Sequence record: OL960581
Source of the DNA: Escherichia phage vB_EcoM_SA20RB
Strand: one strand, 5' to 3'
DNA: 64,000 nucleotides
Program-made: the position numbers and the translations under genes
In this document: one piece after another, positions 24,123-31,471 of the stretch
Layout: every line of letters begins with the position of its first letter
Position numbering within the stretch: position 1 is the first letter of the stretch
The notes under the pieces: model-generated
The model's input: only the letters and a program-made list of their open reading frames with translations
Database searches by the model: none
What the model was told of the DNA's origin: nothing

Positions 24123-26219
24123 TTATCCTTGAACGAACTTGTAAGGCATGTTTGCAATATCTATGCAAGATGCAATAATTCCAAGAGATGATTCTACTTT
24201 TTGTTTAACATTTGATGAAACAAATGATGCAAAGTCAACTCTGTCTTCTATTTCAATATCACCTGTCATTGCAACTACTTCACCAGTTTCCATTAGACGG
24301 TCACCGTCATAAATTACTGATTCGGTGAGTTCTTCCGTAGTCATAACTTCAGCTTGAATGAGTTTTGTATTATTAGATGTTGTTCCGTCATTATTAGAAG
24401 CATCAGTTATTTTATTAACTTTGACCATCAATCCGCGTGGTAGAATTACTTCAGCTTCTGTTGCTATTCCTAGACTTCCTGGATATACAACATTAACTTT
24501 ATGAGCTCCATCAATTGCCCATCCTATTTGAACTTTAACGTATTCAGGATTTTCTTTATACGCTCTTATTTCGTTTGGATTAATAGTTATTCCTTCTTCA
24601 TTTTTATCAACTGTCAATTCATTACGAGCTTCTGGTTCTAAAAGACCAATACCAGCATGTGTAATTCCAAAACGTCCAAAAATGATAGGAGTTAAAGAAG
24701 TAGATACAAAATTTCTGAAATAGAACACTTTATTTTTAACTAGTGCTTCGTATATAGGAGCAGTCATGCTTTGAGCACGATAAACTGTAATGCCTTCTGG
24801 TATACGATCACCATTTTCAAAAGCTGAATCTAAGTTATTTATAGCAGATTCAATTTCTTTTTCACTCATTACATCATATCGTTCTGGATTGTAACGACCC
24901 AAAAGAAGATTATTGATGTCAGTATATCCTGAACCACAATACTCTCTAATGCCGCGCTTTTGTGATGGAGTATATTTAGAACCATCACGGGCAATAGTAA
25001 TATCAATCATTGGACCTGCACCAATTCCAGAAAAGCTATAAATCATTCTTTTAAGGAATTTAGTTTTTGCTGCGTTCCAGGAATTTTTAGTTATTTCTTC
25101 CCAGACTTCATCTGGCTGCCCTTTACGAGTTTTATTATGTTTATCAAGCCAATTATCTTTATATTCTTCAAAGAATTGATTAACAGCTGCTGCGTATTTC
25201 TCTAAACATTTTATTGAAGTAGTTGGTTCATTTTTAATCGCATTAAGAATTACATCTTTAATTTTTTCAGAAACTTCATTAACCTCACTTTTTGAAAAGA
25301 ATTTATAATCATAGTGAAGTTCATTTGCAGTTCCTTCAGCAATAATTTTTGCTGTCTTTGTTTTAGAAGCTAATGAATTAATTCCAAGCTTCATTTCTTC
25401 TGCTTCGGGAATTAAAGGAGCGGTAGCAGGTTTATTGAAATTAGCTGCGGTAGATTCATACTTCTGGAATAATTCACTTTCAAATCTAGAAGATTCTAAT
25501 GATTGACTTTGCGCAATTGCTCTACGGGAAATTTTAACTTTAACGATTACAGCTTGGTCAGAACGTTTATCATTTTCTTGCGCAATAGATGCAGCAATTG
25601 CCTCATTTTTAGTTACTTGAGCTCCAGTATCTTTATTGATATAAACATCACCAACCTTCGATTCAACTTTAGTAAAGAGCTCGGTACTAATTTCCGGAAC
25701 TCCTGGAATGTCTTCTAGTGATACATTTTTGCGATGTATAAGAATATATGCATACTTTTTATCGTAATCCCAAAGTTCCTTAAGAAGGACGTATCTGCCG
25801 CCTGAGCGACTACGGATAAGTCTATCAGCAATAAGTTGAATTTGACGAGCTTGACCAGCAGTTTTAGACTTAAGAATACGGAGCATGCAGGCATCAATTT
25901 TATACTGACGCATCGTCTGCATCGCAACAGTAAAAACTGAATTGATGTAATTAATTGGGCTTGGACCGAGACCTTTTAATTTAGCAATTGAACCTTTAGC
26001 AGTTAATGTAAAAGGAACAATATGCATCATTTTATCGCCCATTTTTAAATCGCGATTAGTATCACCTCCAGATGTATAGGTACATAAACGAAAGCCTGGT
26101 TGTTCAATTGCGTCATCAACATGAACTGAAAAAATTTGCGGTATTTTCTTCTTTGGATTTAAGTTTGTAATCGGAAGAGTAGTATCTTCGTCAAATAATT
26201 CTGTAATGAGTTCCATCAT
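24123..26219 (-). CDS. alt: Alt ADP-ribosyltransferase
   Basis: 698-aa ORF starting ATGATG; R-S-E triad (VYRAQ, FVSTSL, TEAEVILPRG); late promoter upstream. Confidence 0.88.
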   Translation of the reverse strand: MMELITELFDEDTTLPITNLNPKKKIPQIFSVHVDDAIEQPGFRLCTYTSGGDTNRDLKMGDKMMHIVPFTLTAKGSIAKLKGLGPSPINYINSVFTVAMQTMRQYKIDACMLRILKSKTAGQARQIQLIADRLIRSRSGGRYVLLKELWDYDKKYAYILIHRKNVSLEDIPGVPEISTELFTKVESKVGDVYINKDTGAQVTKNEAIAASIAQENDKRSDQAVIVKVKISRRAIAQSQSLESSRFESELFQKYESTAANFNKPATAPLIPEAEEMKLGINSLASKTKTAKIIAEGTANELHYDYKFFSKSEVNEVSEKIKDVILNAIKNEPTTSIKCLEKYAAAVNQFFEEYKDNWLDKHNKTRKGQPDEVWEEITKNSWNAAKTKFLKRMIYSFSGIGAGPMIDITIARDGSKYTPSQKRGIREYCGSGYTDINNLLLGRYNPERYDVMSEKEIESAINNLDSAFENGDRIPEGITVYRAQSMTAPIYEALVKNKVFYFRNFVSTSLTPIIFGRFGITHAGIGLLEPEARNELTVDKNEEGITINPNEIRAYKENPEYVKVQIGWAIDGAHKVNVVYPGSLGIATEAEVILPRGLMVKVNKITDASNNDGTTSNNTKLIQAEVMTTEELTESVIYDGDRLMETGEVVAMTGDIEIEDRVDFASFVSSNVKQKVESSLGIIASCIDIANMPYKFVQG

Positions 26220-26252: not shown

Positions 26253-26270
26253 AAAGGCCCGAAGGCCTTT
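26253..26270 (-). terminator. Hairpin AAAGGCC-CGAA-GGCCTTT
   Basis: 7-bp stem at 3' end of the small ORF upstream of alt. Confidence 0.45.
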
Positions 26271-26457
26271 AATAATCTATTGGTAAGAGAGTACGATATA
26301 TTTCAAACTTTGGACCTTTTTCGTAGGCATCAAATGTTTCTGTAAATTTATTATAAGCATATGCATCTATAAATTCAATCATAATTTGTGATACAGAAGT
26401 AGAAACATCTCCACCTTCTTTTTGAGCAACGACAATTGTTTCTAAGTAAGCTTTCAT
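26269..26457 (-). CDS. Hypothetical small protein between gene 30 and alt
   Basis: 62-aa ORF with ATG start, overlaps ligase stop. Confidence 0.5.
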   Translation of the reverse strand: MKAYLETIVVAQKEGGDVSTSVSQIMIEFIDAYAYNKFTETFDAYEKGPKFEIYRTLLPIDY

Positions 26458-27917
26458 AGACCAGTTACCTCATGAAAATCACCAAATACATCCTCGAATG
26501 TATTAGCTTTAGTTTTATCTTCACGTAAACGAATCGCAATCGGAAGAAATAATTTAACGTAATCAGTGCGGCCATCAGATTTTAGCCAACCGTTGCATTC
26601 GCACTCTAGAATTTTTCCAATATAATAATTTTGGTTTTCCATAATGCGAGTACGGTCAAGTTCATGTGATTTTACACCGGCTTTATCTTTTAAGCCTGAA
26701 CCAGCATTTACTTTAATTTTTCCACACTCTGATTCAAGAATAAATCCACCTGCTTTAGTAGGGTCTTTACGGTGAGGATAAATTCCTACAATTTTTAAAT
26801 CAACATCAATTACTTCTTTAAATTTATAGAGATTTTTTGAACGAGCATTTTCCCACAATCCATCGGTATTTTTGAGAATAATACCTTCAAGACCTTGGTC
26901 AATATATTTTTTATAAATTACCTTAGCTTCATCTAGGTTATTTACTACCTGGTTTTCAATTAAAATTACTTTATCATATCCTGATGTCATTTGTTCTAGT
27001 TTAGAAAAACGTACATCATATTTTAAACGAAACGCCGGAAGACCGTATATTTCTACCAACGGGACATAATCCCAGACCTGAAACTTCATGCATTTGGCTT
27101 CTTTTTCGGAAATGGTTCCTTTTAAGGATTTATTGGCGATTCCATTAGAAGTAGTACGAGATTCCGCTACTTCGGCGAATTCTTTAGCTTTACTAATTTC
27201 AGGATAAGCATCAAAAAGAAAATCTAGGCCTTCTGGTTCCTTTTTAACTTGCTCATGGTATACCAATTCGCCATCAATTAACACACCTTCTGGATGAATC
27301 TGGCGGGCTTCAGCAGTCATTTTGATTAACTCTTCCTTAAGAAGATCTAATCCTAGATATTCATTACCAGCTCGTGATAAAAGACGAACATCATCTAATT
27401 CATCACCTCGAACTTCAGCAAAACACCGAGCTCCATCTGCTTTTAGCTGTGCAAAAGCTGGAAACTTGATATTCTTACTAATGCCTTTTTCATCATAAGA
27501 ACTTGCCAGCATTTGAGGTTGTTCAGGAATTAAACCTGGCCAAACTTTGTTTGCAATAGATACTGAAGCACCGCATTCAAGGTCTCGCATCATAACTCGA
27601 CGCAAAACTTCAACATCATCCTTTTTACCATCAGTGATATATCCAGTTAATTCCTCAATTGCAGCATTTCCAGTCAATTTCCGAGTAGCTAACGTGAATT
27701 CAATGAAGTCAAGCATATCGGTAATAGTCAGCATTCCAAAACTCTGGGTAGCAATACCAGGTTTAGGCCATTTCTTTATATAATACTGTAACCCACGAGA
27801 ATAAGTCAGACGATATACCCGTTTAAGCAATTCATTATCTTTATTCTTTTCAAGAATTGCTTGCTTCTGCTTAGTTGATCCAATAGATGCTATTTCATTC
27901 AGAATTTTAAGAATCAT
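26454..27917 (-). CDS. 30: ATP-dependent DNA ligase gp30
   Basis: 487-aa ORF; adenylation motif KADG (FAQLKADGARCF). Confidence 0.95.
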   Translation of the reverse strand: MILKILNEIASIGSTKQKQAILEKNKDNELLKRVYRLTYSRGLQYYIKKWPKPGIATQSFGMLTITDMLDFIEFTLATRKLTGNAAIEELTGYITDGKKDDVEVLRRVMMRDLECGASVSIANKVWPGLIPEQPQMLASSYDEKGISKNIKFPAFAQLKADGARCFAEVRGDELDDVRLLSRAGNEYLGLDLLKEELIKMTAEARQIHPEGVLIDGELVYHEQVKKEPEGLDFLFDAYPEISKAKEFAEVAESRTTSNGIANKSLKGTISEKEAKCMKFQVWDYVPLVEIYGLPAFRLKYDVRFSKLEQMTSGYDKVILIENQVVNNLDEAKVIYKKYIDQGLEGIILKNTDGLWENARSKNLYKFKEVIDVDLKIVGIYPHRKDPTKAGGFILESECGKIKVNAGSGLKDKAGVKSHELDRTRIMENQNYYIGKILECECNGWLKSDGRTDYVKLFLPIAIRLREDKTKANTFEDVFGDFHEVTGL

Positions 27918-28183
27918 TGTTCATCCTTCAGAGTTTGATTTACAGCTCTATTATAAATCAATTCATCATTAAGCTCAGGCAAAGACTTATGATATGTAGT
28001 TCTAACTTTATTTCCTTGCATCCAGTGCTTGACATAAATGAAACCTTGCTCTACACATTTTTTAAAAATTCGTTCGTCTTTTTGAGCTCGGAATTCTGGA
28101 TTGCATCTAAAAAATTGATTTACGTGACCGTAATCACGTGTAGTATTACCTTCATTTTCATAAATAGTGTGAACGACAAACAT
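27914..28183 (-). CDS. Hypothetical protein (T4 30.1 position)
   Basis: 89-aa ORF, start/stop overlaps with neighbours. Confidence 0.6.
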   Translation of the reverse strand: MFVVHTIYENEGNTTRDYGHVNQFFRCNPEFRAQKDERIFKKCVEQGFIYVKHWMQGNKVRTTYHKSLPELNDELIYNRAVNQTLKDEQ

Positions 28184-29046
28184 TAGAATGCTCCTTGGAA
28201 AATATTATCACCACTAGTAAATCTATTAAAATACCCTGCATCGCCAGGCTTGGTATAACTCCACGTATGGAATGGATTCATATGATATGGGTGTGTATAA
28301 TATGGATTATATGGATGTGTATAATATGGATTATACGGATTAAATCCAGGAGTTCTCCAGGTAGTGTTCCAACGAAAAGAATCGTTTTTAACCATCTTCT
28401 CAATTACATCTTTTATAGCTTTTTCACTATCAAAACTTTCTTTATTTTCCTTTGGTGAAAAAAGCTTATTTTCTATATCATTCCATGTATAAACTCGCTG
28501 TGCAGTTTTTGGAATTTTATCACGCTCTCCTCGAGCCATCCAATAAACCGGAACATTTAATATTTCACTCGCATGGTCGCAGTGGTGAGCGAGATCGTCA
28601 ATATAACAAATTACGTTATATTTCTCTTTTGCCTTTTTGAATAACTCTTCTTTTGAAGAATCATGACCACACATCATTACTTCTGAGAAGGCACCAGGAA
28701 AAAGAGCATTCAAATTAAATTGACGATTCAACAGAGCGTCAATAGAATCACCCAATGCTGTAACAGCTACAAAATTATAATCTTCTTTTAATTTGTTAAT
28801 TACACACAGGGCATCTTTATACGGAGACAAATAACGAATAAAATCTGAACGATTGTATTTTTCAATTAACTTGACACCAAGTTCTTCATCACAATTAAAG
28901 AGTTTACCTGGAGAAATAAATTTCTCATCTTGGATCATTTTTAAAATATGTTCTAACGGAAGATTATATTTCTGAGCAAAATAAGGAAGGCCTGATTGCC
29001 AGCTTAAACATACTCCATCAATATCAGTCAAAATAGTTGGCTTCAT
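28183..29046 (-). CDS. HAD-like phosphatase-fold protein with C-terminal YNPYYTHP tandem repeat (T4 30.2 position)
   Basis: 287-aa ORF; N-terminal DxDG motif (ILTDIDGV) and later YIDD; perfect tandem repeat near C-terminus. Confidence 0.6.
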   Translation of the reverse strand: MKPTILTDIDGVCLSWQSGLPYFAQKYNLPLEHILKMIQDEKFISPGKLFNCDEELGVKLIEKYNRSDFIRYLSPYKDALCVINKLKEDYNFVAVTALGDSIDALLNRQFNLNALFPGAFSEVMMCGHDSSKEELFKKAKEKYNVICYIDDLAHHCDHASEILNVPVYWMARGERDKIPKTAQRVYTWNDIENKLFSPKENKESFDSEKAIKDVIEKMVKNDSFRWNTTWRTPGFNPYNPYYTHPYNPYYTHPYHMNPFHTWSYTKPGDAGYFNRFTSGDNIFQGAF

Positions 29047-29501
29047 AGAGAGTCTCTTAATAGGTTTAACACATCAATAAATTCAGCTTCGGTTAGTATT
29101 GTATCATCTTTTGTTAGACCACTAGCCATGCTATGCTTCAAAACTTTTCCTTTCGAGGCTTGTAATGCATTGCGAAATCCCTTGTTTTGGATCGCTGCTT
29201 CAAAATATGCATTTGTGTATAATTCTTTCCATGCTTCGGAATATCTTGAAAACGGAGTTCCAAGCCAGAACAACGTGCCACGGTCCTGAGCTCTTGCATA
29301 AGACCTTCCAGCTTGTTGGGCGGCAAGCCCGGATAACCCAAATATACGACGCTGTTGTTCAACATTTTTCACCTTGCACCCTTGGAGGAATCCTTCAAGA
29401 CCTCCAAATTGAATACCATCCATAACGAAAGGCCATTTGGCGAAATTACTTAATGCACATGATGGCCACCTAAAATTGCTTCTAATCTCTAACTCAGACA
29501 T
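29043..29501 (-). CDS. NADAR (YbiA/DUF1768)-family protein (T4 30.3 position)
   Basis: Track ORF starts at TTG 29507; ATG at 29501 gives 152 aa; motif LSNFAKWPF..DG..F...E.F.Q..K resembles the NADAR signature. Confidence 0.7.
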   Translation of the reverse strand: MSELEIRSNFRWPSCALSNFAKWPFVMDGIQFGGLEGFLQGCKVKNVEQQRRIFGLSGLAAQQAGRSYARAQDRGTLFWLGTPFSRYSEAWKELYTNAYFEAAIQNKGFRNALQASKGKVLKHSMASGLTKDDTILTEAEFIDVLNLLRDSL

Positions 29502-29700
29502 TTTCAATGCTTATAATTTCAACATCAGCCCAATGACCATAGCAAGGAAGACGAAATTCAACTGGCCAGTTAGGGTCCTTTTCTAATATAATAGACTTAA
29601 CTTGTGGTTCTTCATGTTCATCTGTATACGGATTTTTATCTGTTACTTTATATGTGACCTTAATGTACTGAATTCCAAAAATCTTATTAATTATATTCAT
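29494..29700 (-). CDS. Hypothetical small protein
   Basis: 68-aa ORF, ATG start, operon packing. Confidence 0.5.
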   Translation of the reverse strand: MNIINKIFGIQYIKVTYKVTDKNPYTDEHEEPQVKSIILEKDPNWPVEFRLPCYGHWADVEIISIENV

Positions 29701-29894
29701 ACTAATTCCTTTAATCCATAGATAGGAGATAATTCATCACCCATACGAAGGTCTTCATTTCCATCTACCCAGGAAACAATATAAGCATCTTTTACTTGAA
29801 CATCTCCCAATTTAAATGCAGGTAAAACCTTAGAAATTAATCCAGGTATACCAATTCCCTTTAATTCAACAGTTTGACCTAAAAAGAATTTCAT
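29697..29894 (-). CDS. Hypothetical small protein
   Basis: 65-aa ORF, ATG start, overlapping stop/start. Confidence 0.5.
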   Translation of the reverse strand: MKFFLGQTVELKGIGIPGLISKVLPAFKLGDVQVKDAYIVSWVDGNEDLRMGDELSPIYGLKELV

Positions 29895-30181
29895 TAGAAC
29901 CTCATCTGAAAACCATGCGATTTAACATTACCACCACCAATATCAGAGATATTAATTTCGCGCGCAATTGAAGGGTCAATGTCAATTTCGCGATTGAGTT
30001 TAGTGATAGCTAAAGTATCACGCCCATTTACAGTACGGAACTCTAAAGGGCAGACTACATTAACGTAGTTTTTAATTGATTCACTGGTAGGTTGCAAATG
30101 AGCAGGAAGGTCTTTAGGTGCCTTAGAGAAAACCACTTCACAGAAATTTTTGCGGGTATCAAAATAAGTAGTCATAAACAT
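29894..30181 (-). CDS. Hypothetical protein
   Basis: 95-aa ORF, ATG start. Confidence 0.55.
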   Translation of the reverse strand: MFMTTYFDTRKNFCEVVFSKAPKDLPAHLQPTSESIKNYVNVVCPLEFRTVNGRDTLAITKLNREIDIDPSIAREINISDIGGGNVKSHGFQMRF

Positions 30182-30223
30182 AGTATTTTCCTCAGTAAGG
30201 GGCCGAAGCCCCTCATTTTTATT

Positions 30224-30589
30224 TTAAATATCAAATTCGTTAAGAACTACATCAAAGATCGCTTCAAGATGCTCAGGTTTAGCTCTGTTACTCAGAATAT
30301 GACGAATCCAAGTTTTAACCAGAAGCTTACGATTGACGCCATTCCAGCAAGGATGAGTACCTAAATCGCGTTGACGGAAATCATCATCTAATGCGATTTT
30401 AAAAGAAGAACCTTCTTTCGTGATTGAAACCGTGATGCCATTTTCAAATCGCATATAAACGTAGTTAGGAGTCATATACTGTTCAATTTCGCATACTGAT
30501 CCATTTTGATGTTTCCAAAGGCAGATAGTATCAATAGAACCTGCAATACCATTAGAAACATATTTACGTTCAAAGTTGATGTAGTTCAT
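30224..30589 (-). CDS. Hypothetical protein (30.6-like position)
   Basis: 121-aa ORF; early-type promoter element upstream at about 30600-30650. Confidence 0.6.
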   Translation of the reverse strand: MNYINFERKYVSNGIAGSIDTICLWKHQNGSVCEIEQYMTPNYVYMRFENGITVSITKEGSSFKIALDDDFRQRDLGTHPCWNGVNRKLLVKTWIRHILSNRAKPEHLEAIFDVVLNEFDI

Positions 30590-30657
30590 TTTTATTCTCC
30601 GAGATGTTTAATTGCGGTACAGGTATATAATATCATATCCTGTACCAAAGTAAACAA

Positions 30658-30990
30658 TTATTTTACTACTTTCCAATGTTGCATGTCAAGTTTACCAACT
30701 TTTTTCATCTTCTCAATTAAGCGTTCGGCACGTTGGCGGGCTGTAACATAATACCATTCACCCAATTCATTTTGTTCAATTTTTCCAACGATTACTGTAT
30801 TCAATTCATAAATCCAACCAGTAAAGAAATTATGAACTTGAATTGTAAAGGTGAAATCTGTTCCCATACCTTCTGTTGTTTCTACTTCAATAATATCACC
30901 TTCAACTGCCATTAAGAACCACATAGTTTCATCATATTTACCATTGAAGCATTTAGTTTTAACTGTAGCGTTCAGATTAATCGTTTTCAT
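30658..30990 (-). CDS. Hypothetical protein (30.7-like position)
   Basis: 110-aa ORF; early-type promoter element upstream at about 31000-31050. Confidence 0.6.
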   Translation of the reverse strand: MKTINLNATVKTKCFNGKYDETMWFLMAVEGDIIEVETTEGMGTDFTFTIQVHNFFTGWIYELNTVIVGKIEQNELGEWYYVTARQRAERLIEKMKKVGKLDMQHWKVVK

Positions 30991-31070
30991 TTTATTCTCC
31001 TTTGTTTGTGTAAGATAATACTATCACAAAGGAACTATACTGTAAACAACTTTATGCAATCTTTGGAAAA

Positions 31071-31096
31071 TAAAAAAGGACTCCCGAAGGAGTCCT
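31071..31096 (-). terminator. Intrinsic terminator hairpin AGGACTCC-CGAA-GGAGTCCT with U-run
   Basis: 8-bp perfect stem; A6 on plus gives U-run on minus transcript. Confidence 0.5.
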
Positions 31097-31100
31097 CAAC

Positions 31101-31319
31101 TTATGCTTTCTGCTTACCAAAACGAGAAGCATCATCTCGAAGAACCGCACGTGCTCGGCGCATGATCTTCTCAACAGTTTGATTGATACGAGAGTTCGAC
31201 CCACGCTTGTAACCAGCGCGTTTAGAATCACCAACTTTCTTTTCAACTGCTTTCTTTGCTTTAGCTTGTTTTGCCATTATAAATTCTCTTTTAAATGAAA
31301 ATGCAGGACTTATTGGCAT
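31101..31319 (-). CDS. Small highly basic protein (start may be internal ATG at 31277, giving 58 aa MAKQAKAKK...)
   Basis: ORF rich in K/R; two candidate ATG starts. Confidence 0.5.
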   Translation of the reverse strand: MPISPAFSFKREFIMAKQAKAKKAVEKKVGDSKRAGYKRGSNSRINQTVEKIMRRARAVLRDDASRFGKQKA

Positions 31320-31471
31320 TGCCTGCGAAAGCCCTCAAGGGGTACTTAGGTTTTGAATATTTACCGACAGGATAACCATAAACCTCGTCAACATTCAAGA
31401 GGTACACCGTAAAACAAAGTTCGACGGCTCCTCGTTTTAACTTCACACTAAGGCAGTGACTCTCCAATAAA

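Follow-up and report, generated by a model that had tools for sequence, protein, structure and literature searches.

The window analyzed here is a stretch of 64,000 nucleotides from Escherichia phage vB_EcoM_SA20RB (sequence record OL960581), and the gene in question, the T4-type gene 30.3 (adfN, for anti-DarT factor NADAR), lies on its minus strand. According to the read-out of open reading frames (ORFs), its ATG is at 29501 and its stop codon at 29043-29045; a possible earlier TTG start, two codons before the ATG, appears in the program-made ORF list. The gene order at the locus is that of T4, i.e., alt, alt.1, 30 (ligase), 30.1, 30.2, 30.3 (embedding 30.3'), 30.4, and 30.5 onward. Over 4 kb around the gene, the sequence is 98.8% identical to that of Shigella phage vb_GEC_SH_GT and at least 90% identical to hundreds of Tequatrovirus genomes. 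As judged from sequence, the phage is T4-like (Tequatrovirus) and the gene orthologous to T4 gene 30.3. Its features are listed below.

29043..29501, minus strand: adfN (T4 gene 30.3) coding sequence, 152 amino acids plus stop; phage-clade NADAR DNA ADP-ribosylglycohydrolase
29394..29396, minus strand: Glu36 codon (GAA), catalytic glutamate; E36A abolishes T4 AdfN function (PMC11257639)
29373..29375, minus strand: Lys43 codon (AAG), phosphate-coordinating lysine; K43A abolishes T4 AdfN function (PMC11257639)
29133..29135, minus strand: His123 codon (CAT); last-strand residue that takes the place of the third catalytic Glu/Asp in the phage clade
29049..29090, minus strand: C-terminal helix (residues 138-151), intact; helical in the model and aligned without gaps to T4 AdfN through the last residue

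The window protein and T4 gp30.3 are of equal length and were aligned with 0 gaps, 147 of the 152 residues being identical; the functional AdfN of T2 and the window protein share 96.7% identity. The initial annotation had placed the product in the NADAR family by a sequence pattern, and this pattern is present exactly as quoted at residues 17-43 (LSNFAKWPFVMDGIQFGGLEGFLQGCK). In Pfam, the protein matched PF08010 (Phage_30_3) over the whole model (E=1.4e-68; 229.5 bits vs. a gathering cut-off of 36), and its PHROG match was phrog_652, a family of no known function. The connection with NADAR proteins emerged at the level of the family. The gp30.3 family profile matched E. coli YbiA (2b3w) across the motif (E=0.0042), hhalign aligned the family with YbiA at 94.1% probability (E=1.3e-7; residues 17-123), and PF08719 (NADAR/DUF1768) was matched individually by 21 of the 53 family members, with a best E value of 1.5e-7. 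The structure prediction that the initial annotation had proposed gave a confident AlphaFold2 model from the family alignment (predicted local distance difference test, pLDDT, 92.9; predicted template modelling score, pTM, 0.88) with the NADAR fold, an alpha-helical core flanked by small beta-hairpins. YbiA was the best sequence-level PDB match of gp30.3 and its second-best fold match.

The conserved glutamate and lysine, on which the family claim had been made to depend, were both found as Glu36 and Lys43. Glu36 is invariant in the 53 family members and aligned to YbiA E48, the counterpart of the catalytic E43 of PnNADAR and E88 of E. coli C7. Lys43, conserved in at least 90% of the same 53 sequences, aligned to YbiA K55, which corresponds to the phosphate-coordinating Pn K50 and C7 K95. 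His123 is invariant in the family alignment as well, and since hhalign pairs K122 with YbiA V124, it falls opposite YbiA E125. At this third catalytic position, YbiA-type NADARs have Glu, the DarG1/BC4488 type has Asp, and phage NADARs have His (PMC11543638; PMC11125620; PMC12945103). The C-terminal helix matters too: in the inactive RB69 allele, a 1-nucleotide insertion removes the last 15 residues including this helix, and because of this truncation RB69 is sensitive to DarTG1 (PMC11825919). With E36, K43, H123 and the C-terminal helix all intact, the window allele is predicted to be functional.

Phage NADARs had been recognized before, in the classification of De Souza and Aravind, as cited in PMC11543638, and by Schuller et al. 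2023. In vitro, the cloned T4 gp30.3 hydrolyzed guanosine-ADP-ribose (ADPr) but not thymidine-ADPr, and it was unable to rescue DarT1 toxicity in uninfected cells (Toxins 2024, PMC11125620); cytidine-ADPr is not removed by the T4 enzyme either (2026 paper, PMC12945103). Hydrolysis of the guanine-ADPr bond by the T4 protein in vitro is documented in PMC11257639 and PMC12945103 as well. Phage crosses placed DarTG1 resistance at gene 30.3, which was then renamed adfN (Johannesman et al., bioRxiv 2024/Nat Commun 2025; PMC11257639, PMC11825919). In these two reports, deletion of adfN made T4 and T2 approximately 10^4-fold sensitive to DarTG1, complementation likewise supported the role of both alleles, ectopic expression of adfN rescued RB69 from DarTG1, and purified AdfN stripped ADP-ribose from DNA; E36A and K43A variants were inactive (PMC11257639). 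AdfN is described as a guanine-specific DNA ADP-ribosylglycohydrolase, necessary and sufficient against DarTG1 (Nat Commun 2025; Toxins 2024; Mol Cell 2023). T4 AdfN reached full activity only in T-even infections, and because T4-GT7 behaved like the wild type, DNA modification is not the reason for this dependence; a T-even "potentiating factor" was postulated by the authors (PMC11257639, PMC11825919).

We consider it very probable that the window gene is an adfN orthologue that counters DarTG1 by removing guanine ADP-ribose from phage DNA. Host DarT1 of the DarTG1 defence system would attach ADP-ribose to N2 of guanines in the replicating phage DNA, and AdfN would hydrolyze the guanine-ADPr N-glycosidic bond so that ADP-ribose is freed, the base restored, and replication proceeds. 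Catalysis would depend on Glu36, on Lys43 (phosphate binding), and on a third residue of the last strand, His123 in the phage clade. The enzyme would be guanine-specific, i.e., inactive on thymidine-ADPr (DarT2) and cytidine-ADPr, and would reach full activity only during infection by a T-even phage. Orthology, fold, conserved catalytic residues and the intact C-terminus come from the present analysis, and the enzymatic activity and the anti-DarTG1 phenotype come from the literature on T4 and T2; we infer that the window allele behaves like the T4 and T2 alleles. The removal of ADP-ribose placed by DarT-like toxins, proposed in the initial annotation, has been demonstrated experimentally for the 97%-identical T4 gp30.3/AdfN (PMC11825919, PMC11125620) and extends to the window gene by orthology.

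Several observations weigh against this interpretation. The window protein alone gave no match to PF08719 at E<=1 and, with phmmer, none among the PDB sequences; NCBIfam returned no match for gp30.3, nor for the neighbouring gp30.2. As no such direct match was obtained, it is profile and fold evidence that carries the NADAR assignment. Five substitutions separate the window protein from T4 gp30.3 (window to T4: K22Q, T82V, E89P, N111D and M125I), all at variable columns of the 53-sequence family alignment, and for this exact phage allele the role rests on orthology to the 97%-identical T4 protein. The family claim was sustained by the fold, the profile-profile alignment and the catalytic residues but not by a direct NADAR/DUF1768 Pfam match, the matching model being PF08010. 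Altogether, gp30.3 was confirmed as a minimal, core-only enzyme of the NADAR fold that is placed in a separate phage model, PF08010.

Homologues of gp30.3 were present in 1510 phage records, the hosts including Escherichia, Klebsiella, Aeromonas, Acinetobacter, Vibrio and others. Truncated or fused gp30.3 products of 86-109 amino acids were noticed in the T4-like phages SV76, UGJNEcP4, vB_Eco_NR1 and vB_EcoM-RPN226. Like RB69, the four may have a natural sensitivity to DarTG1, or the truncations may represent sequencing or annotation frameshifts. NADARs of the gp30.3 clade with about 38% identity to the window protein were also encoded by jumbo-phage-like metagenomic contigs (L002-L004, L005-L007). 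The contigs examined were up to 308 kb long, and the cluster table also lists one of 424 kb. Genes for NUDIX, Thg1 or phosphoribosyl pyrophosphate (PRPP) synthetase proteins lay within a few kb of these NADAR genes, with no T4-type neighbours. In Rhizobium phage P9VFCI (Pootjesviridae), the gp30.3-clade gene carries the mistaken annotation of a homing endonuclease. The presence in the jumbo-phage-like contigs indicates that the His-type phage NADAR clade extends well beyond Straboviridae, P9VFCI being another such case.

A second frame, annotated in T4, is embedded in adfN and is open in the window.

29138..29365, minus strand: ORF 30.3', 75 amino acids, in the +1 frame within adfN

Between the window and T4, gene 30.3 differs by 22 nucleotides, which change 5 of the 152 residues of gp30.3 and 15 of the 75 residues of 30.3'. 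This distribution of changes argues that the embedded frame is under no purifying selection, and 30.3' is probably not a functional protein. The codons of E36 and K43 lie upstream of 30.3', so the phenotypes published for the point mutants belong to gp30.3. With 15 of 75 residues changed and the inactivating E36A and K43A outside its limits, 30.3' was rejected as a functional element. The +1 frame is nevertheless open, over 54-126 codons, in four diverged gp30.3 homologues.

The genes surrounding adfN are given below.

29494..29700, minus strand: gene 30.4, 68 amino acids; 8-nucleotide overlap (ATGTCTGA) between its stop and the adfN start
28183..29046, minus strand: gene 30.2, 287 amino acids; phosphatase-like domain of HAD fold (residues 1-200) and a disordered tail of NPY repeats
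26269..26457, minus strand: alt.1 orthologue, 62 amino acids; PF24647 "Phage blade protein", a recent Pfam family (E=7.5e-29)
24123..26219, minus strand: full-length Alt-type ADP-ribosyltransferase, 698 amino acids; PF03496
22062..24119, minus strand: its tandem full-length paralogue, 685 amino acids; PF03496
21711..22001: alt.-3 orthologue, downstream of the second alt copy; matches DUF5498

The 8-nucleotide overlap suggests that 30.4 and adfN are translated as one unit. At its other end, the adfN stop overlaps the start of 30.2 by 4 nucleotides (ATGA), and as both ends of adfN overlap, 30.4, adfN and 30.2 are tightly packed on one strand. A scan of positions 27800-31400 with promoter and terminator consensus sequences revealed no excess of promoter-like sites (14 vs. 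15.2±3.3 in shuffles). The HAD-like neighbour described in the initial annotation was borne out by the fold of gp30.2. The two Alt genes that it named are present on the same strand as adfN, one of them 2.8 kb and the other 4.9 kb away.

Whether these neighbours accompany gp30.3 elsewhere was judged from nine diverged loci with a gp30.3 homologue, in which Alt was looked for within 3.5-6 kb. Both 30.2 and Alt were near the homologue in two of them, an Acinetobacter phage (L008) and L010, the two closest T4-like loci, with 30.2 directly adjacent; 30.4 was found beside the gp30.3 homologue in neither, nor is it retained next to homologues of diverged phages. In the flanks of the remaining seven (JSE, Aszh-1, D486, P9VFCI, ATCCa and two jumbo-like contigs), neither 30.2 nor Alt was found. 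The homologue abuts the ligase gene directly in JSE, lies inside a tRNA cluster in Klebsiella phage ATCCa and two genes upstream of SbcCD-like nuclease genes in Vibrio phage D486, adjoins a helicase gene in Rhizobium phage P9VFCI, and stands among unknown genes in the two jumbo-phage-like contigs; the locus of Aeromonas phage Aszh-1 gave no match to 30.2, Alt or ligase. In a Shewanella-phage-like contig (L009), 30.2 stays beside the DNA ligase gene and 30.3 is absent. Absence from seven of the nine loci, together with 30.2 occurring without 30.3 in L009, makes the Alt/HAD linkage look like synteny of a T4 module rather than a functional system, and the initial annotation's suggestion of a link with Alt and the HAD neighbour found no support. 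Alt and 30.2, each present in only two of the nine loci, were rejected as conserved partners of gp30.3.

The proximity of two alt genes bears on an alternative explanation, in which the enzyme serves the phage's own ADP-ribosylation, reversing or tuning the marks of Alt, ModA and ModB or recycling ADP-ribose or NAD-derived small molecules. It would account for the location close to the PF03496 paralogues, and it agrees with a comparative genomics study of 2022, in which T4-like phage NADARs are expressed early with ADP-ribosyltransferases and soluble ADPr derivatives are favoured as substrates (PMC9503650). However, Alt is missing from those seven diverged loci, the activities tested for T4 gp30.3 concern nucleic acids that carry guanine-ADPr, and its deletion has a phenotype specifically with DarTG1 (PMC11825919, PMC11257639, PMC11125620); we regard this explanation as very improbable, and recycling of ADP-ribose products, raised in the initial annotation, was likewise without support. 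We give even less credence to a YbiA-type housekeeping N-glycosidase acting on riboflavin-pathway intermediates. The rank of YbiA among the PDB sequence and fold matches and the name "YbiA (DUF1768 family)" that homologues carry in some JGI records speak for it, but in place of E125, the defining glutamate of the YbiA subfamily, gp30.3 has the invariant His123, there is no riboflavin pathway in a phage for such an enzyme to serve, and the published phylogeny puts the gp30.3 clade nearest the DarG1-type NADARs (PMC11257639, PMC11825919).

The anti-DarTG1 role of AdfN is compatible with a broader one, in which it also counters other guanine-ADP-ribosylating DNA or RNA toxins. AdfN targets the mark and not the toxin, which in the view of the authors makes it versatile (PMC11257639, PMC11825919); representatives of all NADAR families remove G-ADPr from RNA (2026 paper, PMC12945103), and the homologues are widespread across many host genera. 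Nevertheless, DarTG1 is the only defence system that AdfN has been shown to counter, DarTG2 is not countered, and T-ADPr and C-ADPr are not removed (PMC11825919, PMC11125620, PMC12945103), so we hold such an extension to be rather unlikely. As for the dependence of AdfN on T-even infection, gp30.2 is the only translationally coupled neighbour kept in the close T4-like group, and it is not co-conserved more widely. If it were the T-even potentiating factor, which appears quite improbable, it might bring AdfN to the replicating DNA or stabilize it there, or act on the ADP-ribose that is set free. The comparative data yielded no strong candidate for this factor, and 30.2 is best treated as context with no demonstrated part in the system.

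The anti-DarTG1 role was published between 2023 and 2025, and the locus adds nothing new on the biology; it is a correct re-identification of a characterized counter-defence gene. AdfN is a rare enzymatic form of counter-defence, an orphan antitoxin-like enzyme in a lytic phage, and it explains the DarTG1 resistance of T-even phages. The practical upshot concerns annotation: the name adfN can be given to the gene, and DarTG1 resistance is predicted for the phage, in contrast to RB69-type phages with truncated alleles.

Among the known systems, E. coli YbiA (2b3w) carries Glu125 at the position of His123 in the phage protein; YbiA is a housekeeping riboflavin-intermediate N-glycosidase from a LexA-controlled operon and removes C-ADPr, whereas the T4 enzyme does not (PMC11125620, PMC12945103). 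DarG1, the DarT1-associated NADAR antitoxin of the BC4488 subfamily (e.g., G. lovleyi 8bat and the E. coli C7 NADAR), is adjacent to its toxin and has an N-terminal extension (8bat, 219 amino acids) and Asp at the third catalytic position. The neighbours of gp30.3, in contrast, are 30.4 and 30.2 with no DarT, its 152 residues form a core without the extension, and its third residue is His; unlike DarG1, it fails as an antitoxin in uninfected cells (PMC11125620). The adjacent DarT1, the N-terminal extension and the Asp that mark a DarG1 antitoxin are thus all absent from gp30.3. Phage NADARs of the Bas32 and Bas60 types resemble gp30.3 as orphans able to undo DarT1 marks and to save phages from DarTG1 (PMC11257639), but they belong to other NADAR clades, acquired independently, and are effective both without infection and for unrelated phages; the gp30.3 clade, by contrast, is confined to a T-even infection context (PMC11257639, PMC11825919). 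T4 gp30.3/AdfN shares with the window gene its genomic position, the overlapping neighbours, E36, K43 and H123, and the intact C-terminal helix; the two phages differ in that the window has a second full-length alt paralogue, whereas T4 has one alt and the degenerate duplication remnants alt.-1 and alt.-2.
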